Positions 7,597 to 58,988 of a stretch of DNA of 64,000 nucleotides are shown one piece after another (within the stretch, counting starts at the first letter, position 1; each line of letters starts with the position of its first letter). Location of the stretch: assembly GCA_043810025.1 (NCBI GenBank), contig JBDRON010000053.1, positions 462-64,461 on the forward strand. Reading direction: 5' to 3'. Below the pieces are notes generated by a model. The model was not told the origin of the DNA. It saw only the letters and a list, made by a program, of their open reading frames with translations, and searched no databases. Source of the DNA: Elusimicrobiota bacterium (lineage in GTDB: Bacteria > Elusimicrobiota > JBDRON01). The translations under genes were made by a program, and so were the position numbers.

Positions 7597-7725
7597 GTTC
7601 CCCCTTTTGAAAGGGGGATGAAGGGGGATTTTAAAATATTGATCAAATCTCCCCTACCCCTCTTTTTAAAGAGGGAAAAAAACGTCACAGATAGGTAAAG
7701 TTCCGAGCGAAGCTCGGACTAACTT
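7597..7725 (+). repeat. mosaic multi-hairpin intergenic element, copy 1
   Basis: Four consecutive stem-loops: TTCCCCCTTTTGAAAGGGGGA; GGGGGATTTT..AAAATCTCCCC; CCCCTCTTTTTAAAGAGGG; CCGAGCGAAGCTCGG, then GACTAACTT. Confidence 0.7.
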
Positions 7726-7756
7726 AAACCTTAAACCTGCTGTATGAAGGACTAAA

Positions 7757-8653
7757 GTGATCTCAAAAATTGCGCGGTTTATTAAAGCTTATTATATTGG
7801 ATATTTATTTATCGCTCCAGCCTTGATAATTTTAGCTGTCTTTTTGTTTTTTCCGATCGTTCAATCTTTCCTGATGAGTCTTACCGATTACAAAATAACC
7901 AGTATGCACGATGTGCATTTTATCGGGATAAAAAATTATCTGAAGCTCTTTCAAGATCAGATATTTTTGCAATCGCTTTTAAACACCGCCTATTTTGTCT
8001 TTGTGGGCGCGCCTTTAAGCATGGTTGTATCTTTGTTTATGGCGGTAATTCTGAACGAAAAATTCATAAAATATAAAACTTTTTTTCGGGCTTCGTTTTT
8101 TGCTCCGGTCGTGACGACAGTTGTGGCTGTAGCCGTTATTTGGCGCTGGCTTTATCAACCGGATTATGGCTTGTTTAACTGGGCGCTGCGGACAGTGGGG
8201 ATTAATCCGGTTAACTGGTTGTCCGATGTCCGGTTCGCCATGCCTTCCTTAATTTTGATGTCCGTCTGGAAAGGGTTCGGTTACAATATGATTATTTTTA
8301 TCGCCGGATTGCAGACGATCCCCGAGACTTTATATGAATCCGCCCGGATTGACGGAGCCAACTGGTGGAAATGTTTCCGTTACATCACCTTGCCGGGGTT
8401 GCGCCATACAATACTATTTGTCACAATTATGACTACTATCGGGTTTTTTCAATTTTTCGGCGAGTCGTATGTGATGACCAAAGGCGGTCCGTTAAACAGC
8501 ACTATTTCCATCGTTTATTATATGTATAACCAGGGTTTTAAATTTTTCAATTTAGGTTATGCCTCAGCGATCGCTTATGTTTTGTTCGGCTTAATTTTCA
8601 GTTTCACGATGATCCAATTATGGCTACGGCCAAAATATTCCGGAGAAGACTAA
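7757..8653 (+). CDS. ABC sugar transporter permease (MalF/UgpA type)
   Basis: Six TM helices and the EAA-like motif (ESARIDGAN). GTG start. Confidence 0.85.
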   Translation: MISKIARFIKAYYIGYLFIAPALIILAVFLFFPIVQSFLMSLTDYKITSMHDVHFIGIKNYLKLFQDQIFLQSLLNTAYFVFVGAPLSMVVSLFMAVILNEKFIKYKTFFRASFFAPVVTTVVAVAVIWRWLYQPDYGLFNWALRTVGINPVNWLSDVRFAMPSLILMSVWKGFGYNMIIFIAGLQTIPETLYESARIDGANWWKCFRYITLPGLRHTILFVTIMTTIGFFQFFGESYVMTKGGPLNSTISIVYYMYNQGFKFFNLGYASAIAYVLFGLIFSFTMIQLWLRPKYSGED

Positions 8654-8812
8654 GATATCAAAGATCAAAAATCAAAGATCAAAATTTAAAGGCAAAATAT
8701 ATAATTAATATTAAGTACTAAGAAGATAGACTACAGAAAGAAAAGTGAGATGCATTTCCAAATTCGATGGCTGTTGGTCTTTTTAATTTTGATATTTGAA
8801 CTTTGATATTTT
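8654..8812. mobile_element. MITE-like insertion with terminal inverted repeats built from ATCAAAG heptamers, lying between the two permease genes
   Basis: Left end gatatcaaagatcaaaaatcaaagatcaaaattt. Right end aattttgatatttgaactttgatatttt, the reverse complement of the left. Roughly 160 bp, AT-rich, no ORF. The two permease genes are normally adjacent. Confidence 0.45.
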
Positions 8813-9649
8813 ATGACCCGTTACCGTTTATATACGATAATCCGAAATAGCCTTATTTATCTCTTCCTGATTTTAGGGATCGCGGTTACTTTAGCGCCCT
8901 TTGTTTGGATGTTTTTGACTTCTTTTAAATCCAGCGGGGGTATCTTTGCCTACCCTCCCGAATGGCTGCCCAAGCATCCTACTTTTGCCCATTACCAAAA
9001 GCTTTTTTCTGAGATCAAGTTTTTCCTGCATTTAAAAAATAGTCTGATTGTGGCGATTTCGGCCACAGTGATTAATTTGTTTTTAAGTTCAATGGCCGGT
9101 TTTGCCTTCGCCAAATATAAATTTCCCGGCCGGGAAAAGATTTTTACTTTTCTTCTAGCTTCGATGATGATCCCCGGACAAGTGACGATGATGCCGATAT
9201 TTTTATTGCTGAAAAAGTTCGGTTTACTGAACACCTATTTTGGCTTGATTGCCACCGGCGCGGTCAGCGTCTTCGGCATTTTTCTGATTCGCCAGTTTAT
9301 GATCAGTATCCCCAACGACCTCATCGAGTCCGCCCGGATTGACGGTTGTTCGGAGTTTAGAATTTACTGGAATATAATGCTGCCTTTATGCAAACCGGTG
9401 CTGGCCACCCTGGGAATCTTTTCTTTTATGGGCGCCTGGAACGATTTTCTCTGGCCGTTGATTGTGATGATTACCGAGGATATGTATACCTTGCCGGTGG
9501 CTCTGGCTAACCTTAACGGACAGTTCCCCACAGAGTTTGGGCTGTTAATGGCCGGCGCGGTAGTTGTTGTAGCGCCGATTTTGTTAATTTTTATTTTCGC
9601 CCAGAAATTTATCATCAAGGGCATCGCCACCACGGGATTAAAAGAATAA
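8813..9649 (+). CDS. ABC sugar transporter permease (MalG/UgpE type)
   Basis: Six TM helices and ESARIDGCS EAA motif. Confidence 0.85.
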   Translation: MTRYRLYTIIRNSLIYLFLILGIAVTLAPFVWMFLTSFKSSGGIFAYPPEWLPKHPTFAHYQKLFSEIKFFLHLKNSLIVAISATVINLFLSSMAGFAFAKYKFPGREKIFTFLLASMMIPGQVTMMPIFLLLKKFGLLNTYFGLIATGAVSVFGIFLIRQFMISIPNDLIESARIDGCSEFRIYWNIMLPLCKPVLATLGIFSFMGAWNDFLWPLIVMITEDMYTLPVALANLNGQFPTEFGLLMAGAVVVVAPILLIFIFAQKFIIKGIATTGLKE

Positions 9650-9653
9650 AAAA

Positions 9654-12146: not shown

Positions 12147-12159
12147 GATAATGTATAGT

Positions 12160-12360
12160 AATTCCAATGTTGTTGAAGTGTTTCTCCTTTGAAATGTGTT
12201 GTAGGGAACGGTCGCGACCGTTCCTTTGTGTGTTCCCCCTTTTGAGGGGGACTGAGGGGGATTTTAAAATATTGACAAAATCTCCCCTACCCCTCTTTAT
12301 AAAGAGGGAAAAAAACGTCACAGATAGGTAAAGTTCCGAGCGAAGCTTGGACTAACTTGG
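12160..12360 (+). repeat. mosaic multi-hairpin element, copy 2, with a nested REP-like palindrome (12201-12225)
   Basis: Head AATTCCAATGTTGTTGAAGTG, then GTAGGGAACGGTCGCGACCGTTCC, then the four-hairpin body ending GGACTAACTTGG. Confidence 0.7.
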
Positions 12361-12390
12361 CGGCAGTCATCCCTGTTCCTTTTAAAATTT

Positions 12391-13066: not shown

Positions 13067-13678
13067 ATGTTAACCAAAAAAGAAATTGATACGATTAAAC
13101 ATATTCGAAACTTTCTTGTTCACGAGGGCGAAATGCCGACCTACCGTAAACTTATGGCGGCTTTGGGCTACAAATCTCCGCGGTCAGTTACTTTGTTGGT
13201 TAATCAACTAATTAAGAAAAAAATATTAAAGAAAACTTCTAATGGAAGAATACGGATGTTAAATTACTCGGAAGAGAATAACGGCCAGGCCCAAACAATA
13301 AGCGTTCCTTTGCTCGGGCGGATAGCCTGCGGCCGGCCTTTGCTGGCCGAAGAAAATATCGAAGGAATGATCCCTGTTTCGATTAAGTTAGCCCGTCTGC
13401 CGCACAAATATTTTTTGTTAAAAACCAAAGGTGATTCCATGAATGAAAAAGGAATCAATGACGGCGATTTGGTTTTGGTCAGACAGCAGAATACGGCAAA
13501 CAACGGGGACTTAGTTGTTGCTTTAATTGATGGAGAATCAACAATAAAAGAATTCATCAAGTCGGAAGGCGCAATTATCTTGAAACCCCGTTCCTCAAAC
13601 AAGAACCACAAACCGATTATTTTGACCCAAGATTTTCAAATCCAGGGGATTGTCGTTTCAGTGATAAAAGGATTGTAG
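13067..13678 (+). CDS. lexA: LexA repressor (S24 peptidase)
   Basis: N-terminal winged HTH. C-terminal autocleavage module with the catalytic Ser in GDSM and the Lys ([14 protein letters not shown]). Confidence 0.9.
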
Positions 13679-13748
13679 GATTGCCGGGTGTGCCAAAATT
13701 ATTAGACAGCAAAAAGGGAAAAAAATACAAAAATTGATAGGAGGGGGT

Positions 13749-14252
13749 ATGTCGAATAATATTTTTGAACAGATCAAGAAAGTTAACGAGTATGGCCAAG
13801 AGTACTGGAGCGCCAGAGCTCTCTGTACATTATTAGGATATACCGAATATGGTAAATTTCTGCCGGCGATAGAAAGAGCTAAAGAATCTTGCAAAAACAG
13901 CGGGCAAAAGATTGATGATCATTTCGCTGGCGTGAGCGATATGATAACTATCGCTACCGGGACCCCCAAAGAAACTCAGCGGCCTGTAGATAACTATCGT
14001 CTTTCCCGGTATGCCTGTTACCTGATTGCGCAAAACGGAGATCCTCGTAAAGAAGAGATAGCAATAGCTCAAACTTACTTCGCAATTCAAACACGGAAAC
14101 AGGAAGTTCACCAACAGCTAATCGAAGATAATAAGCGCGTACATCTGCGCAATGAAATGAAAACGCATAATAAACAGTTAGCTCAAGCGGCCAAAGAAGC
14201 CGGTGTAATTAATTATGCTAATTTTCAGGACTACGGATATTTGGGAGGGTAA
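13749..14252 (+). CDS. DNA-damage-inducible protein D (DinD) family, truncated paralog (N-terminal two-thirds only)
   Basis: Matches E. coli DinD from the FWSAR motif through NKQL..AGV ([13 protein letters not shown]...[16 protein letters not shown]...[12 protein letters not shown]) but stops after about 170 aa. ATG at 13749 with a GGAGGGGG RBS. Lies 70 bp downstream of lexA. Confidence 0.8.
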
Positions 14253-14255
14253 ACA

Positions 14256-15113
14256 ATGAGTCATTTAATAGCAAAAGAATATAAATCATTTGAAGAGATA
14301 AAGCATCTTTCGGAGGATGGCCATGAATTTTGGTATGCCCGTGAGCTGGCCATGGTACTTGAATATGTGCAATGGCGTAATTTCGTGAAAGTTTTGGAAA
14401 GGGCAATGCTTGCTTGCAAAAACAGCGGGTATGCGGTTCTGGATCATTTTGCTGAGGTCAGCAAAACGATAAATATGCCTAAAACTGCTACTAAAGAAGT
14501 TGTTGATTTTAGACTCACTCGGTATGCCTGTTATTTAATTGTTCAAAATGGAGACCCACGAAAAGAAGTTATTGCATTGGGGCAAACCTATTTTGCCATT
14601 CAAACCAGGCGGCAGGAAGTAGCCGATTACTTTAATCAACTTGATGAGGATAACAAGCGTTTGGTAATAAGGGGCGATATTAAGCAATGGAACCAGATGC
14701 TTGCCGAGGCCGCTCACAATGCGGGTGTTATGAGCGATGAGGAATATGCCGCTTTTCAGAATGCTGGTTATATGGGGTTGTATGGCGGAATGAAGGTCGA
14801 GGATATTCATAAAAAAAAGGGGATAAGGAAAAACGACCGGGTTCTTGACTTTATGAGCAGTACAGAGTTAATTGCAAATTTATTTAGAATATCTCAGACT
14901 GAAGAAAAATTAAAAAAAGATACAACAGCAACTGCTGATGCTGCTAATGAAATACATTTTATCGTTGGGAAAGAGGTTCGAGGCACGATTGAACGAGTGG
15001 GCGGCACAATGCCGGAAGATTTGCCCACTCCAGACAAAAGTATCAGTGATGTTGAGCGAAAACAGTTAAAAAAACTTAAAAATTCTCCAAAAAAATTAAT
15101 GCTTGATGAATGA
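14256..15113 (+). CDS. dinD: DNA-damage-inducible protein D (DinD) family, full length
   Basis: Collinear with E. coli DinD over its whole length, including the C-terminal STELIANLFRISQTEEKLKK...GTMPEDLPTP. RBS lies within the 3' end of the upstream paralog. Confidence 0.85.
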   Translation: MSHLIAKEYKSFEEIKHLSEDGHEFWYARELAMVLEYVQWRNFVKVLERAMLACKNSGYAVLDHFAEVSKTINMPKTATKEVVDFRLTRYACYLIVQNGDPRKEVIALGQTYFAIQTRRQEVADYFNQLDEDNKRLVIRGDIKQWNQMLAEAAHNAGVMSDEEYAAFQNAGYMGLYGGMKVEDIHKKKGIRKNDRVLDFMSSTELIANLFRISQTEEKLKKDTTATADAANEIHFIVGKEVRGTIERVGGTMPEDLPTPDKSISDVERKQLKKLKNSPKKLMLDE

Positions 15114-15840: not shown

Positions 15841-15868
15841 TGTACGGAACGGTCGCGACCGTTCCGCA
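15841..15868. repeat. REP-like palindrome TGTACGGAACGGTCGCGACCGTTCCGCA
   Basis: Perfect 28-bp palindrome. Member of the GGAACGGTCGCGACCGTTCC family. Confidence 0.7.
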
Positions 15869-15954
15869 CTATACCATCTCGGGTATGCTCGCACCTTTCG
15901 GGTACAAAAATATTTTGCTGTTTTACGTTTCGGTTTTTTGGCTGGCCATCCATA

Positions 15955-16154: not shown

Positions 16155-18647
16155 ATGAATAATCTACAGAAATGTATTGCTCATCGCGGAAAAAATGGTT
16201 CAATACAAACCCTTGAATGTCATCTGGAGGAAGTATCTGATAAAACAGGTAAATTTGCTGCGAAGATTGGATTAAAAGAACAGGGAGAATTGATAGGCCT
16301 TTTACATGATATCGGAAAAGCAAGCGAGGAATTTCAGAGATATATTCAATCGGCAACAGGTTTGATCAATTCTGATGAAGACGATTATGTTGATACATCA
16401 GGGATGAAAGGTAAAATTGACCATTCCAGTGCTGGGGCACAAATAATTGCGCGGCACCTTTTAGATAAAGGGAACGAGACTGTTTTTGCCAAACAGTTAT
16501 TATCATTGTGCATTGCGTCTCACCATTCAGGGCTAATTAATTGTATCGCACCTGATGGTACCGATGTGTATTCAAAAAGAATGTCAAAACCGACGGACAA
16601 AACTCATTTTGATGAAATATATTCGAAGATTGATGATGCGCAACGCAAGAGAATAGAACAAGCATTACAATCAAAGGATATTACCAAAACTTTAAAAGAT
16701 CAGCTTAATAATTTGTGTGAAAAAAACAGGGATTCAAAAGAAACATTGATGTTCAAATATGGTTTGATGGTACGGTTTCTTTATAGTTGTCTAATAGATG
16801 CTGACCGATTAAGTACAGCTGATTTTGATTATCCGGCAACAGCAAAAATCAGAAATAACGGTAACTATATTTCTTGGAGCGAATTGATTAAACGATTCAG
16901 AGTGAAATTACGAAGCTTTAAGGGCAAAAAAAATACAATTGACAAATTGCGGCAGAATGTATCAGACCACTGCCGTGAATTTGCCGATAAACCGAAAGGT
17001 CTGTATCAATTAACCGTCCCGACTGGCGGAGGAAAAACACTGTCCAGCCTGCGTTTTGCGTTGCATCACGCCCAAGCGCATGGGATGGACAGGATAATGT
17101 ATGTTTTGCCCTACACAACCATAATAGACCAGAATGCCGATGAAGTTAGGCAGATTCTTGAAGATAAAGATGAGACCGGAAAATACGCTGGGCGGGTTGT
17201 TCTGGAACATCATTCAAACCTAACTCCCGATGAAGAAACTGTACAACAAAAAGTACTTGCCGAAGATTGGGATGCCCCAGTAGTCTTTACGACTGTTGTA
17301 CAGGTTTTGGATGCCTTGTTCGGTTCAGGAACGCAGACTGCGCGCCGTATGCACCAGCTGGCAGATGCAGTGATAATATTTGATGAAGTCCAATCTCTTC
17401 CTATTAAATGCGTTCAAATGTTTAACTTGGCGATCAGATTTTTAGTTCATAACTGCGGCTCAACAGTTGTGCTTTGTACGGCTACCCAACCGCTTTTAAA
17501 TCAAATAAAGCCGGAATCCAGGGCTTTGACGATTGCTCCTAATCAACAGATAATACCAGACATTCAAAAACTATTCAAGGATTTAAAACGTGTTAAAGTT
17601 ATTGATCGATGTAGAGTTGAGAAATGGAACTTAACCGATATAAAAATATTGATTGCCCAAGAACTAAAAATAGCAGGCAGTGTTTTAGTAATAGTGAACA
17701 CAAAGAAAGCGGCAAGAGAAATTTATCAGCAATGCAATAACGATATGCAAGCAAAAGTATATCATTTAAGCACTTATATGTGTCCGGCGCATCGTACGGA
17801 GAAATTGAGAGAAATAACAGCAGGTTTAGAAAATTTAAAGAATAACGAACCGAATAAAGAGCCGATTATTTGCGTAAGCACTCAGCTTATTGAGGCGGGT
17901 GTTGATATTGATTTTGGAGCGGTCATTCGTTCGCTGGCCGGTCTTGATTCTATGGCGCAAGCCGCTGGCCGGTGCAACAGACATAATGAACGAGGTGAAC
18001 CTGGCAGAGTTACAATAATAAATCCGGTAAACGAAAATATTGATGAAATAAAAGAAATTAGGATCGGGAGAGAAAAGGCCGAACGCGTTCTTGGCGAATA
18101 TAAAAAGAACCCCGATATTTTTGATAGAGATATTCTAGGACACAAAGCAATAGAATGTTATTATCAGTATTATTTTTATGACAGAACAAATGACATGAAT
18201 TATCCCGTCAGCAGTAAGTCAGTTGTAAAAAGAAATGACAATTTGTTCATTTTGCTTTCCACAAATACGACTTCTATTGGAGAGTATAAGCGTATCAATA
18301 AAGTATTTCCAGCAATCCCTTTAAGATACTCGTTTATGGCGGCAGCAAAAACTTTTAATGTAATTGATTCGCCCGCGCGTGGTATTGTTGTGCCTTACGG
18401 ACAAATGGGACGGGAAATAATCAACAAACTTTGTTCCGCGTTCGATATTGAGAAACAATACCTTCTTATAAAGGAGGCACAACGATATTCTGTAAATTTA
18501 TTTGAAAATGATTTAAAGAAATTGGGTTGTGCTGTTTGTGAAGTTCAAAAAGGGTCAGGGATTTTATATCTTGACGAGCGTTATTACAGCGATGACTTTG
18601 GGATAAGTGAAAAACCGGTAAACGAGATGGGGTTACTAAACCGCTGA
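16155..18647 (+). CDS. cas3: Cas3 HD-nuclease/helicase, type I-C
   Basis: N-terminal HD motifs (H..HDIGK, SHHSG). DEAD/DEAH helicase motifs (GGGKT, DEVQ). C-terminal domain. 830 aa. Confidence 0.92.
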   Translation: MNNLQKCIAHRGKNGSIQTLECHLEEVSDKTGKFAAKIGLKEQGELIGLLHDIGKASEEFQRYIQSATGLINSDEDDYVDTSGMKGKIDHSSAGAQIIARHLLDKGNETVFAKQLLSLCIASHHSGLINCIAPDGTDVYSKRMSKPTDKTHFDEIYSKIDDAQRKRIEQALQSKDITKTLKDQLNNLCEKNRDSKETLMFKYGLMVRFLYSCLIDADRLSTADFDYPATAKIRNNGNYISWSELIKRFRVKLRSFKGKKNTIDKLRQNVSDHCREFADKPKGLYQLTVPTGGGKTLSSLRFALHHAQAHGMDRIMYVLPYTTIIDQNADEVRQILEDKDETGKYAGRVVLEHHSNLTPDEETVQQKVLAEDWDAPVVFTTVVQVLDALFGSGTQTARRMHQLADAVIIFDEVQSLPIKCVQMFNLAIRFLVHNCGSTVVLCTATQPLLNQIKPESRALTIAPNQQIIPDIQKLFKDLKRVKVIDRCRVEKWNLTDIKILIAQELKIAGSVLVIVNTKKAAREIYQQCNNDMQAKVYHLSTYMCPAHRTEKLREITAGLENLKNNEPNKEPIICVSTQLIEAGVDIDFGAVIRSLAGLDSMAQAAGRCNRHNERGEPGRVTIINPVNENIDEIKEIRIGREKAERVLGEYKKNPDIFDRDILGHKAIECYYQYYFYDRTNDMNYPVSSKSVVKRNDNLFILLSTNTTSIGEYKRINKVFPAIPLRYSFMAAAKTFNVIDSPARGIVVPYGQMGREIINKLCSAFDIEKQYLLIKEAQRYSVNLFENDLKKLGCAVCEVQKGSGILYLDERYYSDDFGISEKPVNEMGLLNR

Positions 18648-18664
18648 TCAAAAGGAAGGTTCTT

Positions 18665-19393
18665 ATGGAAAAAGAAAACAAAGCAGAGTTCAAAGTATCA
18701 GGCAAGTATGCACTTTTTACCGACCCGCTTACAAAAATTGGCGGAGAAAAATGTTCTTATCATATTCCCACTTATGAGGCATTGAAAGGAATCATTAGTT
18801 CTGTATACTGGAAACCGACTATTGTTTGGATTATTGATAAGATCAGAGTTGTTAGCCGCATACGCACTCAGACCAGAAGCACAAAACCGCTTGATTTTAA
18901 CGGCGGCAATTCTCTTGCTATTTATACTTATCTTGCTGATGTGGAATACCAGGTACAGGCGCATTTTGAGTGGAACTTACATCGTCCTGATTTGGAAAAA
19001 GATAGAAACGAGAATAAACATTTTTTTGTTGCACGGCGCATGATAGAAAAAGGCGGTAGGAGGGATATTTTTTTAGGTGCCCGGGAATGTCAAGGATATG
19101 TAGAACCATGCAAATTCGGCGAGGGTAAAGGTGATTATGATGGTTATGGTGAGTTGGCTTTTGATTTGATGTTTCATGGTTTTGATTACCCTGATGAATC
19201 GGGTAAAGACGAGCTTTATGCGAGATTTTGGAAAAACATCAAAATGATAGATGGTGTAGTTAAGTTTCCGTATCCAGGGGAATGCACGATTAGAAAATTT
19301 GTAAGGCCGATGAAAGCCCAGACTATGCAAACAAGCGGATTAAAAGAAGAGGGGTTGCTTGAAAGTTATGTTGAGTCGGAGGTGGCGCAATGA
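18665..19393 (+). CDS. cas5: Cas5c (Cas5d) type I-C
   Basis: 242 aa. Conserved Cas5c N-terminus (KVSGKYALFTDP...SYHIPTYEALKGI). Confidence 0.9.
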   Translation: MEKENKAEFKVSGKYALFTDPLTKIGGEKCSYHIPTYEALKGIISSVYWKPTIVWIIDKIRVVSRIRTQTRSTKPLDFNGGNSLAIYTYLADVEYQVQAHFEWNLHRPDLEKDRNENKHFFVARRMIEKGGRRDIFLGARECQGYVEPCKFGEGKGDYDGYGELAFDLMFHGFDYPDESGKDELYARFWKNIKMIDGVVKFPYPGECTIRKFVRPMKAQTMQTSGLKEEGLLESYVESEVAQ

Positions 19394-21552
19394 GTTGGAT
19401 CCACAGATTGTATGAGACTTATGAAAACTGCCGCGCAATGATTGGTAAAATAGAGGATGATAGTAAAGTACCGCTTCTGCCGATATGCCACACAACGCAA
19501 AAAGCTCAGATTGAAATTATCATTGATGAGAAAGGTAATTTCCAACGCGCACGGCTCGTTCCAAGAGAACAGGCGAGAACCATTATCCCCTGTACCGAAG
19601 CGTCCGGTGGACGCACCAGGGGCGAAGCCCCTCATCCTTTGTGCGATAAATTGCAATATATTGCGGCCGATTTTAAGAAATTTACTGGCGAGGATTCGTA
19701 TTACTTTGCCATGATTGCTGAAGATGATTTTAAAACATTTGGAAAGAAAGATGAGTTGAAGTATTTGATTGAAGGGCTGCACAAGAGCGGTTATATTGAT
19801 AACGCTGGAATAATTCAATCAAGTTTTAATGTACTGAATAATGTCCATGAGCTACATATAGATAAATCATGGGAAAAGAAAAAAGATAAAATCTATGGAA
19901 AACTACTTGAGAAAAATAATAAAGCTTACAGTAACCTTTTGTCTGATTGGTGTAAACCTGAGCATGCACATCGGAAGGCTACGGCTGTTTTTAAATATGT
20001 TCAAAAAGGCGGTGTCATCAAGGATTTAATTGATCATAAAATATTGCATGTTGATGCTGATGGAATATTGCTAAAAAAACGGGCGGAAAAGAAGGACGGT
20101 GAGGTAAAAGACATTTTTGATTTGCTTCCGGGAAGAGAAAACAAAAAAAATGGTAAATTTGAAAATTGGCAGGCGGATGCTTTTATCCGCTGGGAAGTTG
20201 AAATACCAAATGATGTTTGTTCGAAAGCATGGGAAGACAAAACATTGCGGGATAGCTGGATTAAGTTTTATTCAGGAACAAAACAGAATAAAATACTTTG
20301 TTATGTGACAGGCGAAAAACAATTTCCTGCCGATCAGCATCCAGCTAAGTTAAGAAATGATGGAGATAAGGCGAAGCTGATTTCTTCCAATGATTTGTCA
20401 GGGTTTACTTTTCGCGGGCGGTTCACAGAGGCTGAACAGGTTTGTGCTATTGGTTTTGAAGTGACTCAAAAATCTCACAGTGCGTTGCGATGGCTTATCA
20501 GCCGGCAGGGCAATGTTTTTTTTGAAGGGAAAGGTATTAATAAAAAACCGAAATTAACTATCGTAGCTTGGTCAACTGTAGGAAAGCAGATACCAAAGCC
20601 AATGGATGATTCTTTTGACATGTTGGGTGTTTGTGAATTGGTTAGTGATGAAAAGGAAGTTGCTGCTACTGCTCAGTACCTCGCGTTAAAATTGAAGAAA
20701 AAAATCGCGGGATACAAAGCAGATTTGGGCACAACTGATTCTATTGTTGTCATGGGGCTTGATTCTGCGACACCAGGCCGCATGGCAATAACATATTACC
20801 GTGAATTGACAGGTTCAGATTTTCTTGATCGTTTAGACCACTGGCATGAATCCTGCGCATGGATTCACGATTACCATTTCGTTGAAGAAAAGTATATCCG
20901 GTTTGTCGGTGCGCCTGCGCCAAAGGATATAGCTGAGGCAGCCTACGGAAGCAAATCTGATGATAAATTAAAGAAGACTACCGTTGAACGTCTTCTGCCG
21001 TGCATTATAGAAGGCCGTCCGCTTCCCAGAGATATTGTGGAGTCAGCTGTTAGAACGGCTTGTAAACGCTTGGCCATGGATGAATGGAAGTGGAACAAAA
21101 CTCTAAGTATTGCTTGTGCATTATACAAAAAATATTGCGAAAAGGAGGATTACATTATGTCGTTAGAACATGAGCGTAAAACAAGAGATTATTTGTATGG
21201 GAGATTGCTTGCCGCTGCGGACTGCATGGAGAAATTCGCGTTGTTTATTTCTGAAAAAAAGCGTGACACGAACTCCGCGAGATTGATGCAGCGTTTTTCC
21301 GATCGTCCTTGTAGTACATGGAAAATTATAGAACTTTCTTTAGCATCCTATAAAGCGAGACTGGGCGGTAGAGCAAAGAAATACACTGATGTTATTGATG
21401 CGGTTATGAATAAGTTCGACCCACCAGAAGATTTTATAAGTGATAAACCATTGAGCGGTGAATTTTTGTTGGGATATCATTGCCAGAGAGAAAATTTGAA
21501 ACCAAAGAAGGACGAACCGGAAAGCGTAGAGGATGCCGTTGTAGTGGAATAA
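19390..21552 (+). CDS. cas8c: Cas8c (Csd1) large subunit, type I-C
   Basis: 720 aa, in the cas5-cas8c-cas7 position. Start overlaps the cas5 stop. Confidence 0.85.
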   Translation: MSWIHRLYETYENCRAMIGKIEDDSKVPLLPICHTTQKAQIEIIIDEKGNFQRARLVPREQARTIIPCTEASGGRTRGEAPHPLCDKLQYIAADFKKFTGEDSYYFAMIAEDDFKTFGKKDELKYLIEGLHKSGYIDNAGIIQSSFNVLNNVHELHIDKSWEKKKDKIYGKLLEKNNKAYSNLLSDWCKPEHAHRKATAVFKYVQKGGVIKDLIDHKILHVDADGILLKKRAEKKDGEVKDIFDLLPGRENKKNGKFENWQADAFIRWEVEIPNDVCSKAWEDKTLRDSWIKFYSGTKQNKILCYVTGEKQFPADQHPAKLRNDGDKAKLISSNDLSGFTFRGRFTEAEQVCAIGFEVTQKSHSALRWLISRQGNVFFEGKGINKKPKLTIVAWSTVGKQIPKPMDDSFDMLGVCELVSDEKEVAATAQYLALKLKKKIAGYKADLGTTDSIVVMGLDSATPGRMAITYYRELTGSDFLDRLDHWHESCAWIHDYHFVEEKYIRFVGAPAPKDIAEAAYGSKSDDKLKKTTVERLLPCIIEGRPLPRDIVESAVRTACKRLAMDEWKWNKTLSIACALYKKYCEKEDYIMSLEHERKTRDYLYGRLLAAADCMEKFALFISEKKRDTNSARLMQRFSDRPCSTWKIIELSLASYKARLGGRAKKYTDVIDAVMNKFDPPEDFISDKPLSGEFLLGYHCQRENLKPKKDEPESVEDAVVVE

Positions 21553-21582
21553 TGTAATAAAAATCTAAAAGGAGGATTATTT

Positions 21583-22524: not shown

Positions 22525-22646
22525 TGTCCGTATATAATGTTTTCCAAAGACGACTTGCTCTCAATATCCAGCCTGCAACATATCATTTTCTGTTTCCGGC
22601 AGTGCATGATACATTTCAATCGTCTTGGAAGAAAGGAGTGATTTTT

Positions 22647-23477: not shown

Positions 23478-23481
23478 CTTA

Positions 23482-49380: not shown

Positions 49381-49409
49381 GCAGGGAACGGTAGCGACCG
49401 TTCCCTGCA
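49381..49409. repeat. REP-like palindrome GCAGGGAACGGTAGCGACCGTTCCCTGC overlapping the presumed promoter region of the metal ABC operon
   Basis: Near-perfect 30-bp palindrome about 50 bp upstream of the start at 49330. Confidence 0.7.
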
Positions 49410-49457: not shown

Positions 49458-49569
49458 GAAGCTAAGGAATTTCAATGTTGTTGACGGTAAAGCTAATTTG
49501 TTTTTGACTTTGTAGTTTGCCGATTTATCGGCGTTTTAAGGCGCCCCATAAATGGGGCAGCTACAATGA

Positions 49570-49631
49570 CGTAGGGCAGGGCTTTAGCCCTGCGGTTTTA
49601 AAGACGCAAAAGCCTAAAGGCTTGCCCTACG
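49570..49631. repeat. multi-stem structured element A (outer stem GTAGGGCA/TGCCCTAC enclosing two small hairpins)
   Basis: An inverted copy lies at 52012-52071. The two copies bracket the TonB-receptor gene and its upstream region. Confidence 0.6.
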
Positions 49632-49696
49632 AAATCAACAACAAATACTTATCATTTAAGGTAAAGTCCGACCGCCGGCTTTTTGGCGGTCTTAAC

Positions 49697-51481
49697 TTAT
49701 CCAAAGATGTAATTAAGGCCGAGTGTTAAAGTTCTTTTGGGCATTGTATAAAGCCCGCCGTTATAAATCTGGTATTCCTTATCGGTTAGATTATCTATCG
49801 CGCCGAATACAGACAAATTGTTTAGCAGTTTATAATCAACTTTTGTATTAAACAGAAGATAATCATCGATCTTGCCCGTTGAATTATCGCCGGAATAATA
49901 CCTTCCTGCATATTCTCCGGTGATTATGGCATTCACTTTCTTTTTTGAATATTTCAGGGATGCGCCGGCTTTGTTGCCCGGCCTGCCGGTTGTCTGTGTT
50001 CCCGGGTCAAAATAGGTATAGTTCACCTGAGTGTTAAAAGAATCTGAGATCTTTGCGATGAGCATTGTCTCAATACCTTTAAACTCAAAATCGCCGATGT
50101 TCACATTCTTGCCGGCACGCGACTGTATGAGGTCAGCCCCTTTCATTATAAAACCAGCAAGATCAAGGTCTATTGATTCACCAAACTTCTGGCGAAGCCC
50201 GATTTCAGTATTAGTAACTTTTTCAGGTTTCAGATCCTTATTGCCACCCCAGAGAAACAAATCATTTATCTGCGGCGCGCGGAATCCCCGGCTCCAAATA
50301 CCTCTAAGTATTGTGCCGTTCAAGGTATTATAAACAACCCCCAGCTTGGGATTAACAATGTCCTTTGCAAACTCGTCATTGTTATATCTTGCGCCGCCGT
50401 TAAGAGTAAGTTTTTCCAAGAAGGTATGTTCATCATTGATATAAACGCCGTATTCATATTTATGGTAATGGCCAATCATAAACGCAGGCGCAGTATTGAG
50501 CACATCGCCGAACTGATACCGATAATCCAGCCCGACACTTAATTCGTTGTTTTCCAACAACTTTGTTTTACTGTGCGCCATTAAGCCATCCGTATAGTCT
50601 TTGGAATGGAAACCATTCGAGAATTTGTGTTCACCGAAACTGCGGTAAATTTTCAACGAATTATTAAAATTCCCGGCAATTCGATTATAGGTTAGATCAA
50701 CCGAACCCCTGCCGTAATCGTTCCATGTCCCGGCTGCTGAAGGAAATGGCTCGTTTTTTATCCCGGTAAAATACTTGGAGCTTAAAGAAATATCCGAATA
50801 CCCCGACAAGGCATACCCGAACTGGCCGGAATAGTCAGTTGCCTTAAACGAGGAATTTTCCTTATGCCCAGCAGTTGACCTTTTGTTTACACTGATAAAG
50901 TAATCAACTTTATCAATTTTGCTTCCCTGCTGAAAAAGATAGTTTTGCGTATTAAAGGTTCCCAGCGAGGCTAGGAAGTTTCCTTCCAGTTTTTTTGCCG
51001 CTCTTTTTGTAATTATATTCACTACGCCGCCAAAGGCGTCGGATCCATAGAGAACAGATTCCGGTCCTCTGATTACTTCAATTCTTTCCACATTATTCAT
51101 CGGCAGGGTGTGCGTTACGGAACAGCCGAATACGCCCATTTTATCAGGTCTTCCGTCAATGAATATTCCTAGCTGCCTCCCGTTTCCACCTATCCCTCTT
51201 ATATCAATATCCGCTCTTCCGAAATCACCGGATTTCCTGATAAATATGCCGGGAAGTTGGCCAAGAATATCAGTAGTCTGTTTTGCGTTAGACATCTTAA
51301 TATCCTCTTTTGTAATAACACTTGCGCTTACGGGAAGTTTGTTTATCCATTGCTCATACCTTGATGCTGTTATCATCTTTCTTTCCAGGGAAAGATACAC
51401 CTCTGCGCTAAAACCAATTACTGCCGTTGAGACTAAAACAGACATAGACACTGCTACAACATTTGCTCTGACAAATCGCAT
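49697..51481 (-). CDS. TonB-dependent outer-membrane receptor
   Basis: Signal peptide, plug domain, beta-barrel with a C-terminal aromatic residue. 594 aa. Confidence 0.85.
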   Translation of the reverse strand: MRFVRANVVAVSMSVLVSTAVIGFSAEVYLSLERKMITASRYEQWINKLPVSASVITKEDIKMSNAKQTTDILGQLPGIFIRKSGDFGRADIDIRGIGGNGRQLGIFIDGRPDKMGVFGCSVTHTLPMNNVERIEVIRGPESVLYGSDAFGGVVNIITKRAAKKLEGNFLASLGTFNTQNYLFQQGSKIDKVDYFISVNKRSTAGHKENSSFKATDYSGQFGYALSGYSDISLSSKYFTGIKNEPFPSAAGTWNDYGRGSVDLTYNRIAGNFNNSLKIYRSFGEHKFSNGFHSKDYTDGLMAHSKTKLLENNELSVGLDYRYQFGDVLNTAPAFMIGHYHKYEYGVYINDEHTFLEKLTLNGGARYNNDEFAKDIVNPKLGVVYNTLNGTILRGIWSRGFRAPQINDLFLWGGNKDLKPEKVTNTEIGLRQKFGESIDLDLAGFIMKGADLIQSRAGKNVNIGDFEFKGIETMLIAKISDSFNTQVNYTYFDPGTQTTGRPGNKAGASLKYSKKKVNAIITGEYAGRYYSGDNSTGKIDDYLLFNTKVDYKLLNNLSVFGAIDNLTDKEYQIYNGGLYTMPKRTLTLGLNYIFG

Positions 51482-51932
51482 GATCGTTTCCTCCTTTTAG
51501 AATTTGCTTGCCCAGCTACATAACGCCGCTTGTTTAGCCTAATTATTGATTGCTGAAACCACCTCCTTTTCTCAAGCTGCATACTTATTTTGCAATAGTG
51601 CTACGGTCAGGCAAAAAAATATATTACTCTGCGCTGTAATTGTCTGCCTGATAAAATCTTCTATAACGAATTAGCGGTGACATTGAATCATCCTTTGGTG
51701 CATACGTTTTTTATAATTGTAACACTTTTTTTAAAAAAGTCAATACTGCAGAAACTTCAGACAACATTCAAATTGAAAGTTCCTTGCGGAAAACCAGAAA
51801 ACTGTGCGAACGAAATTAAGTTCGCGCGGTTTTTTTAAAAAAGTTCACATTGGCTTCACAATTTTGTCACCTGGTTGTTTTATAATTACTTTAAGGAGGA
51901 GAAATAAATGAATTACCAATTTACATCATTAA

Positions 51933-52181
51933 TTCAGAGGTCATAGCAAACAGCCACAAAAAAACCAGATCGACGGAAGGTTTTTCTAAAAATAGCTTGC
52001 CGATTTTGAAATGTAGGGCAAGCCTTTAGGCTTGCATCTCTAAAACCACAGGGCTAAAGCCCTGCCCTACGGCATCACTTTACCCGTAAACAAACGAGCA
52101 AAGTATTACAATGATGTGCCATATCGGAAAAGTATTTTTTGAAAATTCAAAAAAAAGCGGTTGTTTGCTATGACCTCTGAA
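51933..52181. mobile_element. MITE-like element with 25-bp terminal inverted repeats (TTCAGAGGTCATAGCAAACAGCCAC ... GCGGTTGTTTGCTATGACCTCTGAA) carrying element B (52012-52071)
   Basis: The terminal inverted repeats are reverse complements with 2 mismatches. Internal A-runs abut both repeats. A third solo copy of the terminal repeat lies at 52374-52400. Confidence 0.5.
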
Positions 52182-52408
52182 GAAGGTAAATTAATGGTAA
52201 GACTAAAAATATTTAGCGATCCTGAAATAGATTATGCAGCCAGACATCTTTGTGAAGACCTCAATCAAATGAACCCGGTTACATTGGACAAGTTTCAACT
52301 CCCAATCTGCTATAAAGTGGTATAAAGTGGTATAGGGTGCCGGAAAAAGATTTTTGAAAAAATTTAAGTGTTGTGGCTGTTTGCTGCTACCTCTGAATTA
52401 GTGATTAC

Positions 52409-52567
52409 ATGTTGAAAGATTCTTCCACTGTTCCTCGCGCCCTGCCGCTACTTTTAATTGCCCGCCACCTGGAACGCATCTGCGGCCATGCCACCAACAT
52501 CGCCGAAGATGTCATCTATCTGATTGAAGCCAAAGTTGTCAAACACCATCCGGAAAAATTAAGCTAG
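52409..52567 (+). pseudogene. PhoU C-terminal fragment
   Basis: Encodes ...LLIARHLERICGHATNIAEDVIYLIEAKVV, the second PhoU repeat. The frame opens only 4 codons upstream, directly after a solo copy of the MITE terminal repeat. Confidence 0.55.
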
Positions 52568-52852
52568 TCCTCTCTACGCTCGGAACTAACTTGGGGGGTG
52601 GATACCCGCACTTGTAAGTCATTTTGTCATGCCCGAATGTTTTTATCGGGCATCTGACTATAAAAATGGATTCTCGATTAAAGATTTCGTGAATGACAAA
52701 ATTGCCAAGGATGAATAGTGGTATTACTATTGCAAATGCGGGGATGCACCCAAACTTGGGCGCCGATTTGACTTTCCTTGGTTTTTTAAATATACTTTAT
52801 GTTTAGCGGTTATCTGGATAGTTTGTAGGGTTCATTCATTAAGGATGGAGCG

Positions 52853-53179
52853 TTGGCTATGGAAAATCAGGGGACCGGGGAACTGGAAAAAGTAAAGATT
52901 CGGGGGTTGGTGCGGGCCGCTGGCTGGATTTTTTTAGTTTGGGGGGTAGTTATTGCCCTGAAAGGCCTGCTTGATGCTTTCTGGCTGGAACCGGAGGCAA
53001 ACTATTATTCTTTGAAAAGATGGGAATTTATTTCCTTGGATCAGTGGATTCGCTACGCCACTTTTGAAGTTGTCTATGGAGTAGTTTGCATTGTTATCAG
53101 CGGATTGCTTTTTGAGTATTCTAAACGCCTTGTCGAATATATTTCGCGTCCAAGAATTGAGGACGAAGAAATATTTTAA
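52853..53179 (+). CDS. hypothetical small membrane protein
   Basis: 108 aa, two TM segments. Confidence 0.4.
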   Translation: MAMENQGTGELEKVKIRGLVRAAGWIFLVWGVVIALKGLLDAFWLEPEANYYSLKRWEFISLDQWIRYATFEVVYGVVCIVISGLLFEYSKRLVEYISRPRIEDEEIF

Positions 53180-53185: not shown

Positions 53186-53284
53186 TTCCCTCTCCCCTTG
53201 CGGGAGAGGGCAGGGTGAGGGGCAAATAAAGGAATCGAAGCTTTAACACCCTCACCTTAATCCTCTCCCCTCAAGGGAGAGGAA
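53186..53284. repeat. CCTCTCCCC/GGGAGAGG hairpin element, copy 1
   Basis: CCCTCTCCCCTTGCGGGAGAGGG ... GGGTGAGGG..CCCTCACC ... CCTCTCCCCTCAAGGGAGAGG. Confidence 0.6.
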
Positions 53285-54540: not shown

Positions 54541-54575
54541 ATAAGGTGTAAGGTGTAAGGTTTAAGGTTTAAGGG
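54541..54575. repeat. heptanucleotide tandem repeat (TAAGGTG/TAAGGTT) x5 upstream of the HD gene
   Basis: Sequence ataaggtgtaaggtgtaaggtttaaggtttaaggg. Confidence 0.7.
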
Positions 54576-57177: not shown

Positions 57178-57229
57178 ATCATTGTAATATTGATTTTAGA
57201 CATTCAGAAGTATGGACTCAAGTTGTTTT

Positions 57230-57316
57230 CCTCTCCTTCGATGGGAGAGGATTAAGGTGTGGGTGTATATTTTAAAAAGCACCCCTCACCCTACCCTCTC
57301 CCCCAAGGGGAGAGGG
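57230..57316. repeat. CCTCTCC/GGGAGAGG hairpin element, copy 2
   Basis: CCTCTCCTTCGATGGGAGAGG ... CACCCCTCACC ... CCCTCTCCCCCAAGGGGAGAGGG. Confidence 0.6.
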
Positions 57317-57394
57317 AGCATCAATGTGCGATGTTTTTCCGTTTTATGCGGGCTAAATTTAAGGTGAAATGAGTTTTTTTTAAACGAGGTTAAG

Positions 57395-58702
57395 ATGAAA
57401 AAAATTAATTTGGGGTTGATTGGGTTTGGGACGGTGGGCGCTGGTGCGATAAAAATTATACAGAGTAATCTGGCGCTTTTGGAGAAGAAGATTGGCGCGA
57501 AGATCGAGTTGGTGAAGATTTGTGATAAAGATTTATCTTCTCCCCGACCAGGGGTTAAACTTAATCCAAAGATGTTAACCTCTGATTACCACGAAATTAT
57601 CAATGATCCGAGTATCGATATCGTGGTTGAATTGATCGGCGGCTATGAGCCGGCGCGGACGATAATTTTGGAGGCGATGGCCAAAGGTAAACATATTGTG
57701 ACGGCCAATAAGGCCTTAATGGCCAAATACTGGGATGAAATTCTAACTGCTGCCCGGGCAAACCAGGTGCTGGTTTATTTCGAGGCTTCAGTGGGTGGAG
57801 GGATACCGGTGATCCAATCCCTCAACGAAGGGTTGGCCGCCAACCATATTTTATCGATCGCCGGAATTTTGAACGGAACGACCAACTATATTTTAACCAA
57901 AATGACCAGGGAAGGGATAAACTTCTCCCATGCCTTAAAGATGGCGCAGTCGGCCGGGTTCGCCGAGGCTGACGCCAGGTTCGATTTGGAAGGGATAGAT
58001 GCGGCGCATAAGTTATCAATTCTGGCTTCGATTGCTTTTGGCAGTTGGGTGAAGTTGGAAAACATTGCCTGCCAGGGAATTAATCAGATTGATTGCCGTG
58101 ATCTGGTTTATGCCCAGGAATTCGGCTATATCCTTAAACTGATTGGGATGGCTAGAAACAAGAACGGGGAAATCGAGATTCGGGTGGCTCCCACTTTAAT
58201 TTCTCCCAACCATCCGTTTGCCAACGTGGAAAATGAATATAACGCTATTTTAATTCATGGCGATGCTGTCGGCGATGTAATGCTTTACGGTAAAGGGGCC
58301 GGACAGATGGCCGCGGCCAGCGCGGTGGTTTCTGATATTATCTTTTTGGCTCGTCAGGTAAACAGCGGGATGGCCGGCAAAATTCCTTATGTTACTTATG
58401 ACCGGAAAAAGAAACTAAAATTCTTACCTGAGGAAAAAAGCGCCGGGAAATATTATTTAAGGTTTACCACCGAGGACAAACCGGGGGTGCTGGCCACCAT
58501 CGCCGGTCTACTCGGTAAAAACGATGTTTCCATTGCCTCCGTATCTCAGAAACAAAAACACCCCCCACAAAAAGGTGTGCCTATTCTGATCATTACCCAC
58601 CGGGCTAAAGAAGGAGATGTTGTTAAATCGTTAAAATTAATCGATAAACTTTCCGTAGTCCGGGCAAAAACGGTAATTTTTAGGATAGAAGAAAAATTGT
58701 AA
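57395..58702 (+). CDS. hom: homoserine dehydrogenase with C-terminal ACT domain
   Basis: NAD-binding GFGTVG motif, catalytic domain and ACT domain. Confidence 0.92.
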   Translation: MKKINLGLIGFGTVGAGAIKIIQSNLALLEKKIGAKIELVKICDKDLSSPRPGVKLNPKMLTSDYHEIINDPSIDIVVELIGGYEPARTIILEAMAKGKHIVTANKALMAKYWDEILTAARANQVLVYFEASVGGGIPVIQSLNEGLAANHILSIAGILNGTTNYILTKMTREGINFSHALKMAQSAGFAEADARFDLEGIDAAHKLSILASIAFGSWVKLENIACQGINQIDCRDLVYAQEFGYILKLIGMARNKNGEIEIRVAPTLISPNHPFANVENEYNAILIHGDAVGDVMLYGKGAGQMAAASAVVSDIIFLARQVNSGMAGKIPYVTYDRKKKLKFLPEEKSAGKYYLRFTTEDKPGVLATIAGLLGKNDVSIASVSQKQKHPPQKGVPILIITHRAKEGDVVKSLKLIDKLSVVRAKTVIFRIEEKL

Positions 58703-58718
58703 AACAACTTGATGTCGA

Positions 58719-58866
58719 GGAAATTCAACTTTGATGAAGTGTTCCCCCTTTTAAAAAGGGGGATTAAGGGGGATTTTGAAAATAAGAAATATTGTCTAAA
58801 TCTCCCCTACCCCTCTTTTATAAAGAGGGGAATTAATATTCTGAGCGAAGCTCGGACTAACTTGAA
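58719..58866 (+). repeat. mosaic multi-hairpin element, copy 6
   Basis: Head GGAAATTCAACTTTGATGAAG plus the four-hairpin body ending GGACTAACTTG. Confidence 0.7.
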
Positions 58867-58871
58867 GTTAA

Positions 58872-58988
58872 GGAAATTCAATGTTTGTTTTGTGCGTGTT
58901 CCCCCTTTAAAAAGGGGGACTAAGGGGGATTTAGACAATAATAATTATTAAATCTCCCCTAACCCCTCTTTATAAAAGAGGGGAATAA
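58872..58988 (+). repeat. mosaic multi-hairpin element, copy 7 (tandem, lacks the fourth hairpin)
   Basis: Head GGAAATTCAATGTTTGTTTTG plus three hairpins. Confidence 0.65.

Follow-up and report, generated by a model that had tools for sequence, protein, structure and literature searches.

A co-oriented mosaic repeat with a predicted BoxC/PIT-type core in intergenic spacers of an Elusimicrobiota genome

Introduction

What kind of element is a block of consecutive hairpins that recurs seven times, always in the same orientation, in the intergenic spacers of a short bacterial genome segment? The question is raised by a stretch of 64,000 nt from an Elusimicrobiota bacterium (assembly GCA_043810025.1, contig JBDRON010000053.1, positions 462–64,461 of the forward strand), which is referred to below as the window and whose first letter is position 1. 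The original prediction described there a family of multi-hairpin elements, and proposed that they are either transcribed structures or a recently active miniature inverted-repeat transposable element (MITE). We report here that the family is a mosaic repeat with a core of the BoxC/potential intrastrand triplex (PIT) type, which encodes nothing, is no terminator and belongs to no known RNA family. Our reading of the whole, to which we give a probability of about 0.6, is that of a non-coding, non-autonomous mosaic repeat comparable to repetitive extragenic palindromes (REPs) and bacterial interspersed mosaic elements (BIMEs), which would be propagated as DNA, tolerated in the sense orientation and REP-like in its action on mRNA.

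Enterobacterial REP/BIME mosaics are made of short intergenic palindromes of alternating orientation, joined by fixed linkers, the REPs of the malE-malF spacer being an example. BoxC sequences correspond to the PIT elements of Hoyne and Maher, known from E. coli, Synechocystis and H. influenzae, and to the E. coli triplex motifs (TM) named TMECO by Holder et al. (2015; PMC4666352). Class-II purine-type intrastrand triplex motifs occur in large numbers among prokaryotes, and those of the TMECO group are always intergenic, without strand bias, and combine extraordinarily conserved stems with variable loops (PMC4666352). In strain K-12 five inverted pairs exist, each made of one type A and one type B motif; TMECO loci are unusually variable among strains, and many of the palindromic pairs have been reduced to plain hairpins (PMC4666352).

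Results

A family of seven plus-strand copies

Reading and alignment of the loci and a profile hidden Markov model (HMM) built from the alignment all returned the seven plus-strand copies that had been proposed. With this HMM, nhmmer retrieved seven plus-strand loci (E = 2.5e-37 to 2.3e-54) and nothing comparable elsewhere in the window, its minus-strand matches being the same seven loci, mirrored by their palindromes. The copies are spread over six intergenic spacers, measure 95–200 nt and are 70–91% identical to each other, the highest identity (91%) being that of two neighbours located on either side of the permease and GH35 genes. The core 21-mer AAATCTYCCCTACCCCTCTTT occurs six times in the window, and the head and tail motifs four times each when up to three mismatches are allowed, against an expectation of zero in all three cases. 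As had been stated before, no open reading frame (ORF) is conserved among the copies, and the family is a real repeat.

That the family is an artefact of repeats collapsed in the assembly had been named as a way in which it could prove spurious, and a resemblance due to chance is another. Both are effectively refuted: shuffled sequences yield zero expected matches for every motif and the same core is present in many independent assemblies. As the copies diverge by 9–30% and are sited between distinct, unique and well-supported genes, an assembly artefact is ruled out.

An inverted pair of triplex motifs as the core

The four stem-loops of the element fold as the original prediction had it. They are real, but their membership of a known class had been missed: judged from the sequence, stem-loops 1–3 correspond to an inverted pair of class-II purine-type intrastrand triplex motifs (BoxC/PIT/TM), whose stems recur unchanged in unrelated phyla and in phages. 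Each motif consists of three arms, one of pyrimidines, one of purines and a third that is a mirror image of the purine arm, and each strand carries one motif. Arms 1 and 2 form a Watson-Crick hairpin, and arm 3 mirrors the purine arm. The plus-strand motif (G5 type) reads TCCCCCTTT - loop - AAAGGGGGA - TTA - AGGGGGATTT, and the minus-strand motif (GAG type) CCCCTCTTT - loop - AAAGAGGGG - TA - GGGGAGATTT. Stem-loop 1 is TCCCCCTTT/AAAGGGGGA, followed 3–4 nt downstream by AGGGGGATTT, the mirror of the purine arm with T for A. Stem-loop 3 is CCCCTCTTT/AAAGAGGGG, followed on the opposite strand by TA and GGGGAGATTT, again the mirror of the purine arm. Stem-loop 2 is made of the two third arms, which lie face to face and pair with a one-base bulge. 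As oligonucleotides, the G5 and GAG sequences are TCCCCCTTTAAAAAGGGGGATTAAGGGGGATTT and CCCCTCTTTATAAAGAGGGGTAGGGGAGATTT; a text search of the literature for G5 and GAG strings found nothing relevant.

An ITxF-like scan (pyrimidine arm, loop of 1–6 nt, purine arm, loop of 1–6 nt, mirror arm; stem length 8 nt or more, one bad triplet tolerated) detected 18 class-II motifs in the window, all of them within spacers, versus a mean of 0.43 and a maximum of 4 in 40 dinucleotide-preserving shuffles. A hairpin of arms 1 and 2 (at least 8 nt, loop of 1–6 nt, at most one mismatch) is present in all 14 copy hairpins and in four further, TMECO-like hairpins. A third arm 1–6 nt downstream, with G opposite G and A or T opposite A, accompanies 13 of the 14 modules, the exception being in copy 5, which is also the only copy where a plus motif is not followed by a minus motif. 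The window contains eight complete plus/minus pairs, in addition to copy 5, and six of them combine G5 with GAG.

The outer flank of each palindromic hairpin served as internal control for the mirror arm. Only the inner flank carries it, with 9–10 of 10 triplets versus 4–5 of 10 on the outer flank, and the asymmetric arm AAAGAGGGG fits a mirror (9/9) rather than a direct repeat (4/9). A reading as G-quadruplex was set aside, as each element has just three G runs per strand. Folding is far stronger than that of shuffled sequences on both strands (z of about -4.8 for plus and -4.6 for minus), and the element can adopt either separate hairpins or one long hairpin. G.U pairs reveal no consistent difference between the strands, and a covariation check was uninformative because the stems hardly vary.

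None of the seven copies fits the exact E. coli TMECO consensus CCCTCNCCC N3-6 GGGNGAGGG N3 GGGNGAGGG. The window holds two further inverted pairs which are TMECO-like. One, at 53188–53284, reads CCCTCTCCCC ttg CGGGAGAGGG ca GGGTGAGGGG, followed by its inverted partner (it can also be given as CCCTCTCCCC..GGGAGAGGG..GGGTGAGGG); the other, at 57229–57316, lies upstream of hom. Their motifs at 53188–53221 (plus) and 57283–57316 (minus) fit the consensus only if the second loop is allowed to be 2 nt long.

Modules around the core and their combination

To this core, modules are added that appear to be proper to the lineage: a head (GGAAATTCAATG...), an A-rich spacer, a GCGAAGC mini-hairpin and a tail (GACTAACTTG). 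Stem-loop 4 (CCGAGCGAAGCTCGG) holds the exact GCGAAGC core of the GCGNAGC sequences, which form extraordinarily stable mini-hairpins as DNA and much less stable ones as RNA (PMC13037366).

The copies combine these modules in different ways. Copy 1 (7597–7727) is headless and lies between a solute-binding protein (SBP) gene and an ABC permease gene; its G5-type motif on the plus strand (7598–7630) is followed by an AT loop and by the GAG-type motif on the minus strand (7646–7676), and then by the A-rich spacer, the mini-hairpin CCGAGCGAAGCTCGG and the tail. Copy 2 (12158–12361), after the GH35 gene, has its head at 12158–12181, a degenerate half hairpin, an inserted GTAG-type REP (12201–12228), the motif pair (12233–12309), mini-hairpin and tail. 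Copy 3 (31762–31921), after the GGDEF gene and upstream of a promoter-like site (31936–31964), consists of head, motif pair (31786–31867) and decayed mini-hairpin and tail. Copy 4 (34288–34454), located between a perfect sigma-70 promoter consensus (34224–34252) and rplU, has a type-2 head, the motif pair (34315–34401), mini-hairpin and tail. In copy 5 (35231–35388), between the convergent rpmA (plus) and PIN (minus) genes, the plus motif is short of one 10-nt AAGGGGGATT repeat, and so a plain hairpin, and the minus motif (35301–35330) is intact. Copy 6 (58719–58866) begins 17 nt past the hom stop codon and comprises head, motif pair (58742–58830), a short spacer, mini-hairpin and tail. It is followed in tandem by copy 7 (58872–58988), which has a head and a motif pair (58899–58984) and lacks both mini-hairpin and tail. 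The flanking genes that had been named hold up, those for the SBP, GH35, GGDEF, macro-domain and L27 proteins by Pfam and hom as well (its protein matches one annotated from an Elusimicrobiota metagenome-assembled genome at 100% identity, and the next best homologue is only 63% identical); ABC permease, L21 and PIN genes were identified in addition.

Isolated modules had also been proposed. The solo head at 49466–49486 (plus) is confirmed, with two mismatches and an E value of 2.5e-7 with the head HMM; the flanking znuA-like and TonB receptor genes are both on the minus strand, and a REP (49381–49408) is located 60 nt upstream. The second one, at 60131–60156, is weak: it is absent at up to three mismatches and from the matches of the head HMM, and the resemblance is one seen by eye only. 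This head-like sequence (60131–60181, plus) starts from the stop codon of the PALP gene and runs into a GTAG-type REP (60158–60181). The tail remnant is real but composite, an inverted piece beside a direct piece: in this tail and mini-hairpin remnant (52554–52594), a minus-strand tail-like piece at 52554–52587 (E = 3e-4) accompanies plus-strand GCTCGGAACTAACTTGG. It is part of a region of 1.37 kb (51481–52853) without ORFs of at least 70 codons and without Rfam matches.

The combinations found are head, pair, mini-hairpin and tail; head, REP and pair; pair without head; head and pair without tail; REP followed by head; and head with REP. As the modules are mixed and matched, the comparison with BIMEs made in the original prediction is apt, and it is borne out further by the head's occurrence with the GTAG-type REP. 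The triplex-motif modules themselves carry neither a GTAG nor a CGTC tag; GTAG belongs to the separate palindrome GTAGGGAACGGTCGCGACCGTTCC.

This palindrome, near-perfect as GTAGGGAACGGTCGCGACCGTTCC(CTGCA), represents a second repeat family, with the GTAG tag typical of REPs associated with REP-associated tyrosine transposases (RAYTs). Its members lie at 12201–12228, 15842–15869, 38015–38042, 49381–49408 and 60158–60181, and also at 49500–49690 and 60203–60235. Wherever the tag is clear (3/3) it is on the plus strand, and more hairpins of the GTAG type are grouped in the 49.3–49.7 kb spacer.

Distribution of the core and of the composite element

When one genome per species was scanned with the 21-mer AAATCTYCCCTACCCCTCTTT, at least 80 matches were obtained, mostly in Pasteurellaceae; among the matches listed are also Nitrospirota, Deltaproteobacteria (Smithella, Syntrophaceae), Methylococcaceae, Ca. 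Kapaibacterium, Firestonebacteria and Acinetobacter. The same two-type pair, in the same order, was found at five loci, including those of a Gammaproteobacteria metagenome-assembled genome (MAG), Smithella and Nitrospirota, and an Acinetobacter plasmid has the same layout with a variant second motif (G5 + GGGAGG). BLAST against plasmids gave three Acinetobacter matches, and against phages a 39-nt match in Haemophilus phage SuMu and one other. In an alignment of four window copies with four foreign loci, stems and linkers are invariant and the loops are free to vary. As the same core, with identical stems, is present in unrelated phyla and in phages, it is neither new nor specific to this genome, and the G5+GAG pair has the appearance of an old module shared across phyla.

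Other arrangements exist, such as single motifs, or pairs whose hairpins are enclosed by the third arms. Single motifs retain the third arm though no partner arm exists with which it could pair, and the three-arm unit is therefore the basic module. Viral G5 hairpins chosen regardless of a third arm led to a similar picture: a perfect one is located within 1–6 nt, on one or both sides, in 52 of 103, versus 1 of 103 in a control 200 nt away in the viral contigs. Used as a query, the TMECO-like sequence 57229–57316 has a median of 12 matching places per E. coli genome, the flgF-flgG spacer among them.

In Pasteurellaceae (Haemophilus, Aggregatibacter, Actinobacillus) the GAG motif is the inner part of terminal inverted repeats of about 50 nt, TAATTTCTTCG...CTGCCAAATCTCCCCTACCCCTCTTTGCTAAAGAGGGG, which delimit MITE-like elements of 130–290 nt (loci L001, L012, L015, L020 and many others). 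One inverted pair has kept its place, upstream of a conserved gene, in different genera (L011, L014, L019, L075, L076, L080). A literature search on Pasteurellaceae MITEs found nothing relevant.

Head, spacer, stem-loop 4 and tail had no significant match in the other-phyla genome loci, plasmid and E. coli loci fetched up to then, nor in three related Elusimicrobia regions. A query with mini-hairpin and tail against Joint Genome Institute (JGI) metagenomes gave one match, in a GC-rich coding region, that was judged to be due to chance. The related Elusimicrobia have about one TMECO-like motif per 20 kb, versus 18 motifs in the 64-kb window, and the composite element was not found in the regions examined. 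These four modules are, on the comparisons made, putative lineage-specific additions, met in the source genome only.

Orientation and transcription

The uniform orientation of the seven copies has a two-sided p of about 0.016, or about 0.03 if the tandem pair is taken as one event. It had been stressed that each copy lies just downstream of a plus-strand gene. This position is close to what chance would give: about 47.7 kb of coding sequence are on the plus strand versus 9.4 kb on the minus strand (about 84% plus), and of the 31 spacers that measure 40 nt or more, 26 come after a plus-strand gene. As most genes are on the plus strand, "downstream of a plus gene" carries little information. The copy at 34288, moreover, is parted from the macro-domain gene by the perfect TTGACA-17-TATAAT consensus at 34224–34252, and is therefore better placed in the leader of rplU-rpmA. 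The spacers differ in kind, being in one case that of SBP and permease (7597), in another that of promoter and rplU (34288), and in a third that of convergent genes (35231).

The suggestion that the elements act as terminators did not survive. No T-tract follows the hairpins, and a terminator scan of two regions holding 5 of the 7 copies flagged only hairpin 3 of copy 6, whose tail is AATTAATATT, with counts not above those of shuffles. At the gathering threshold Rfam has no match in the window, and a permissive Rfam scan of copies 6 and 7 returned sub-threshold noise, such as miRNA precursors and Aggregatibacter JA04 (30.9 bits, threshold 81).

Data on orientation came also from viruses, for which we used 93 stretches of IMG/VR contigs with rough ORF calls. 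Between co-directional genes, the G5 motif is sense in 50 cases versus 11 antisense (p = 5e-7), and 29:11 once the cases resembling ribosome-binding sites are removed. Of 111 distinct viral motifs, 34 are followed, 5–14 nt past the second G run, by the start codon of an ORF with 60 codons or more (with a peak at 8–10 nt), versus 10 of 119 in a control on the other strand. Several contigs carry four to six G5 motifs on one strand (L108, L109 and L135, for example). Since the viral copies are in part non-independent and ORFs were called only roughly, we take this as a lead and not as proof. In about 30% of the viral motifs, those near start codons, the third arm is probably used as a Shine-Dalgarno sequence. 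Window copies have no start codon 5–14 nt after the G run; the loop and the second motif follow instead. Translational coupling was considered for the phage pairs of "-+" order, just 6 of 57 of which are closely preceded by a stop codon as well as closely followed by a start codon, and is therefore no general explanation. Mini-hairpins of the GCGAAGC type (GGCGGCGAAGCCGCC, GTCGGCGAAGCCGAC) adjoin triplex motifs or sit inside the second loop in viral loci (L109, L115, L173, L186, L212), an echo of stem-loop 4 of the window.

These data bear on whether the element could be a dedicated, strand-specific RNA element (a 3′-UTR or leader structure, or a small RNA), in which the plus transcript is selected and the likeness to triplex motifs is incidental. 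The sense orientation of 7/7 copies, the viral bias, which persists without the Shine-Dalgarno-type cases, and the spacing to start codons, indicating that the motif is usable at the RNA level, are what such an element would produce. The same can be said of the stability of the folds relative to shuffled sequences, and of the fact that 5 of 6 G5-containing pairs of other bacteria and the Acinetobacter plasmid are sense to the nearest co-linear ORF (rough calls). We nevertheless consider it unlikely. It has no Rfam family, its plus folds are not consistently above the minus folds, which reach z = -4.6 themselves, and the near-invariant stems leave covariation without a say. Besides, the copies occupy varied positions in transcripts (operon interior, 3′ region, leader, convergent genes) and never precede a start codon at the viral spacing in the window, the solo head is plus-oriented between two minus-strand genes, and single GAG-type motifs in other phyla stand either way round.

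A wider proposal along the same line is that the three-arm motif is primarily an expression module at the RNA level, a hairpin that displays a free Shine-Dalgarno-like G run 3′ of it, spread by phages and mobile DNA, with cellular copies retained in the sense orientation and shaping mRNA stability or translation. We put it forward tentatively, as an idea with the odds against it.

Mobility and DNA dynamics

Traces of rearrangement are found in several copies. Copy 5 has suffered a 10-nt slippage deletion, which a Methylococcaceae locus underwent independently; copies 6 and 7 form a tandem, copy 1 has no head and copy 7 no tail. A relative with the same aminotransferase-hom-thrC synteny (hom about 62% identical) has a hom-thrC spacer of 29 nt (L282, 4794–4822), versus 352 nt in the window. 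The short spacer has its own AAGGAG, and the 352 nt of the window hold two copies.

The original prediction of a recently active MITE did not hold: the copies are only 70–91% identical, no transposase is encoded among the about 60 ORFs of the window, and no clear target-site duplication is seen. A classical MITE, whose head and tail would be the ends recognized by a transposase encoded elsewhere and whose triplex pair would be cargo or internal structure, is a broader notion, which we regard as doubtful. Size, multiplicity and intergenic location are those of MITEs; the head TTCAATGTT and the tail AACTTGAA make a short imperfect inverted repeat, and heptamers resembling CTTGAAG, which may be target sequence or part of the element, occur before the head and at the tail end of several copies. 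The tandem insertion (58719/58872), the 29-nt hom-thrC spacer of the relative and the location of the GAG motif of Pasteurellaceae within the terminal inverted repeats of MITE-like elements are also in its favour. Against it, the inverted repeat, TTCAA(T)GTT / AACTTGAA, is imperfect and only 8–9 nt long, and the ends are the least conserved part of the element and missing in copies 1 and 7. Neither transposase, integrase nor RAYT is found among the ORFs of the window, no unambiguous target-site duplication is visible, inter-copy identity is low, and the modules are recombined among themselves and with a further REP, in the manner of BIMEs and not of a fixed unit.

The whole window has a positive GC skew, and mnmE is located near its left end (1078–2466), so the plus strand is probably the leading-strand sequence. 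This would make it the lagging-strand template, and allows one to ask whether the orientation tracks replication, the folds on single-stranded DNA serving a Y1-type (RAYT/IS200-like) enzyme, or pausing or priming. Purine-motif triplexes, which cannot form in RNA (PMC4666352), and GCGNAGC hairpins are DNA-specific or far stabler as DNA (PMC4666352, PMC13037366). GTAG-tagged REPs coexist with the element, with clear tags on the plus strand in 3/3 cases, and the solo head keeps its plus orientation amid minus-strand genes. The idea is nonetheless improbable in our view. As each copy carries one motif per strand, choice of strand cannot explain the pair; no RAYT was seen in the window, the TMECO of E. 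coli lack strand bias (PMC4666352), the phage data favour a link with transcription or translation, and seven copies are too small a sample.

Other features of the window

A type I-C CRISPR-Cas locus (16155–25238) comprises cas3, cas5d, csd1/cas8c, cas7, cas4 and cas1, with a BRO-N domain ORF (22524–23477) wedged between cas7 and cas4. Its CRISPR array (25006–25238) has only four identical repeats, and no separate cas2 ORF is seen between cas1 and the array. Intergenic tandem heptamers (AGTCATG ×7, ATCAAAG ×4, AAAACGC ×4 and TAAGGTG ×5) are located at 3424–3474, 28896–28917, 8657–8683, 34803–34829 and 54542–54574. Toxin-antitoxin-like genes include two nucleotidyltransferase-HEPN pairs placed tail to tail (62268–63721) and flanked by a repeated 53-nt sequence (62185–62237 and 63783–63835), a ribbon-helix-helix (RHH)-PIN pair (41982–42719) and a lone PIN gene (35400–35774). 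The region 13067–15113 may be a prophage or defence remnant; in it, the gene for a LexA-like S24 peptidase precedes two BRO-N paralogues, which have an internal repeat of 122 nt in common (13986–14107 and 14499–14620).

Discussion

The core of the element had already been described in other organisms; what is new is the composite, its Elusimicrobiota host and the strict co-orientation. The features by which the class was defined at the sequence level are present here, with the exception of the exact E. coli consensus. Common to both are the three-arm layout, loops of 1–6 nt, intergenic sites, near-invariant stems with variable loops, inverted pairs of two types and decay to plain hairpins by partial deletion. 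The elements of the window differ in that their stems are an A/T-extended G5 and GAGGGG instead of the CCCTCNCCC of TMECO, in that the motifs form part of a larger block (up to about 200 nt) that also has head, mini-hairpin and tail, and in that the seven copies are co-oriented, whereas TMECO have no strand bias.

With REP/BIME mosaics the family shares its build from short palindromes of alternating orientation and fixed linkers, its location in intra-operon spacers, including one between SBP and permease genes, probable cotranscription, and the presence of a GTAG-tagged REP in the mosaics. The triplex-motif modules, however, are untagged, no RAYT gene is seen in the window, and their stems are shared between phyla, in contrast to the species-specific REPs. 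REPINs likewise consist of two related palindromic units inverted around a short spacer, which fold separately or as one long hairpin; the units of the present element are of two types, each with a third mirror arm, and have no known associated RAYT. MITEs such as Correia, ERIC, RUP and Nezha resemble it in size, copy number, intergenic position, probable cotranscription and short terminal inverted similarity; here the ends are weak and often missing, the build is modular, and there is neither a demonstrable target duplication nor a known cognate transposase. Cluster K mycobacteriophages reportedly carry start-associated sequences (SAS/ESAS), and the G5 motif of the viral contigs is likewise a repeated hairpin with a purine run 5–14 nt before the start codons of many genes; the sequences are unrelated, and no window copy is start-associated. 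Finally, stem-loop 4 shares the GCGAAGC core of GCGNAGC mini-hairpin DNA, whose known natural examples are at single-strand replication origins (PMC13037366).

In the reading that we favour, the mosaic repeat would enter intergenic spacers as a block copied at the DNA level, through recombination or through a mechanism acting in trans. When single-stranded, the element would fold into three or four very stable hairpins, possibly with triplex formation on DNA, and this folding would favour slippage, deletion and tandem duplication. Sense copies in transcribed spacers would place the hairpins in mRNAs too, where the most likely effect is a REP-like one, that is, protection of mRNA ends and uncoupled expression within operons (for example of SBP versus permease), and not termination. 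Retention in the sense orientation and a REP-like action on mRNA ends are suggested by the copy between SBP and permease genes, the one between promoter and rplU, and the sense bias of viral G5 motifs.

Several observations weigh against this view. Earlier work found no promoter or terminator activity for E. coli PIT/BoxC, triplex formation by them was undetected in vivo, and TMECO lack strand bias (PMC4666352). The 64 kb of one MAG do not allow orientation to be told apart from gene strand or from replication strand. Plus and minus folding energies have no consistent asymmetry, and therefore nothing specifically indicates selection on the transcript; in other phyla, single GAG-type motifs have mixed orientation relative to neighbouring ORFs. 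As for propagation as DNA, the terminal inverted repeat is short and imperfect, and no clear target-site duplication or empty site in a close relative was seen.

With the present element, the BoxC/PIT/triplex class, catalogued in E. coli, Haemophilus, cyanobacteria and many other bacteria, now reaches the Elusimicrobiota, and its two-type pair is conserved base for base in the stems across unrelated phyla and on plasmids. For annotation, such blocks should be labelled as repeats of the BoxC/TM type and not as new RNA genes, terminators or small ORFs. The sense bias of viral G5 motifs and the frequent Shine-Dalgarno-like spacing of their third arm to start codons were not seen in the TMECO study (PMC4666352) and, if confirmed, would turn an old descriptive category into one that can be tested with reporters. 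Were the motif indeed a module acting at the RNA level, BoxC/PIT elements, to which no function has been assigned since the 1990s, would be given a testable one.

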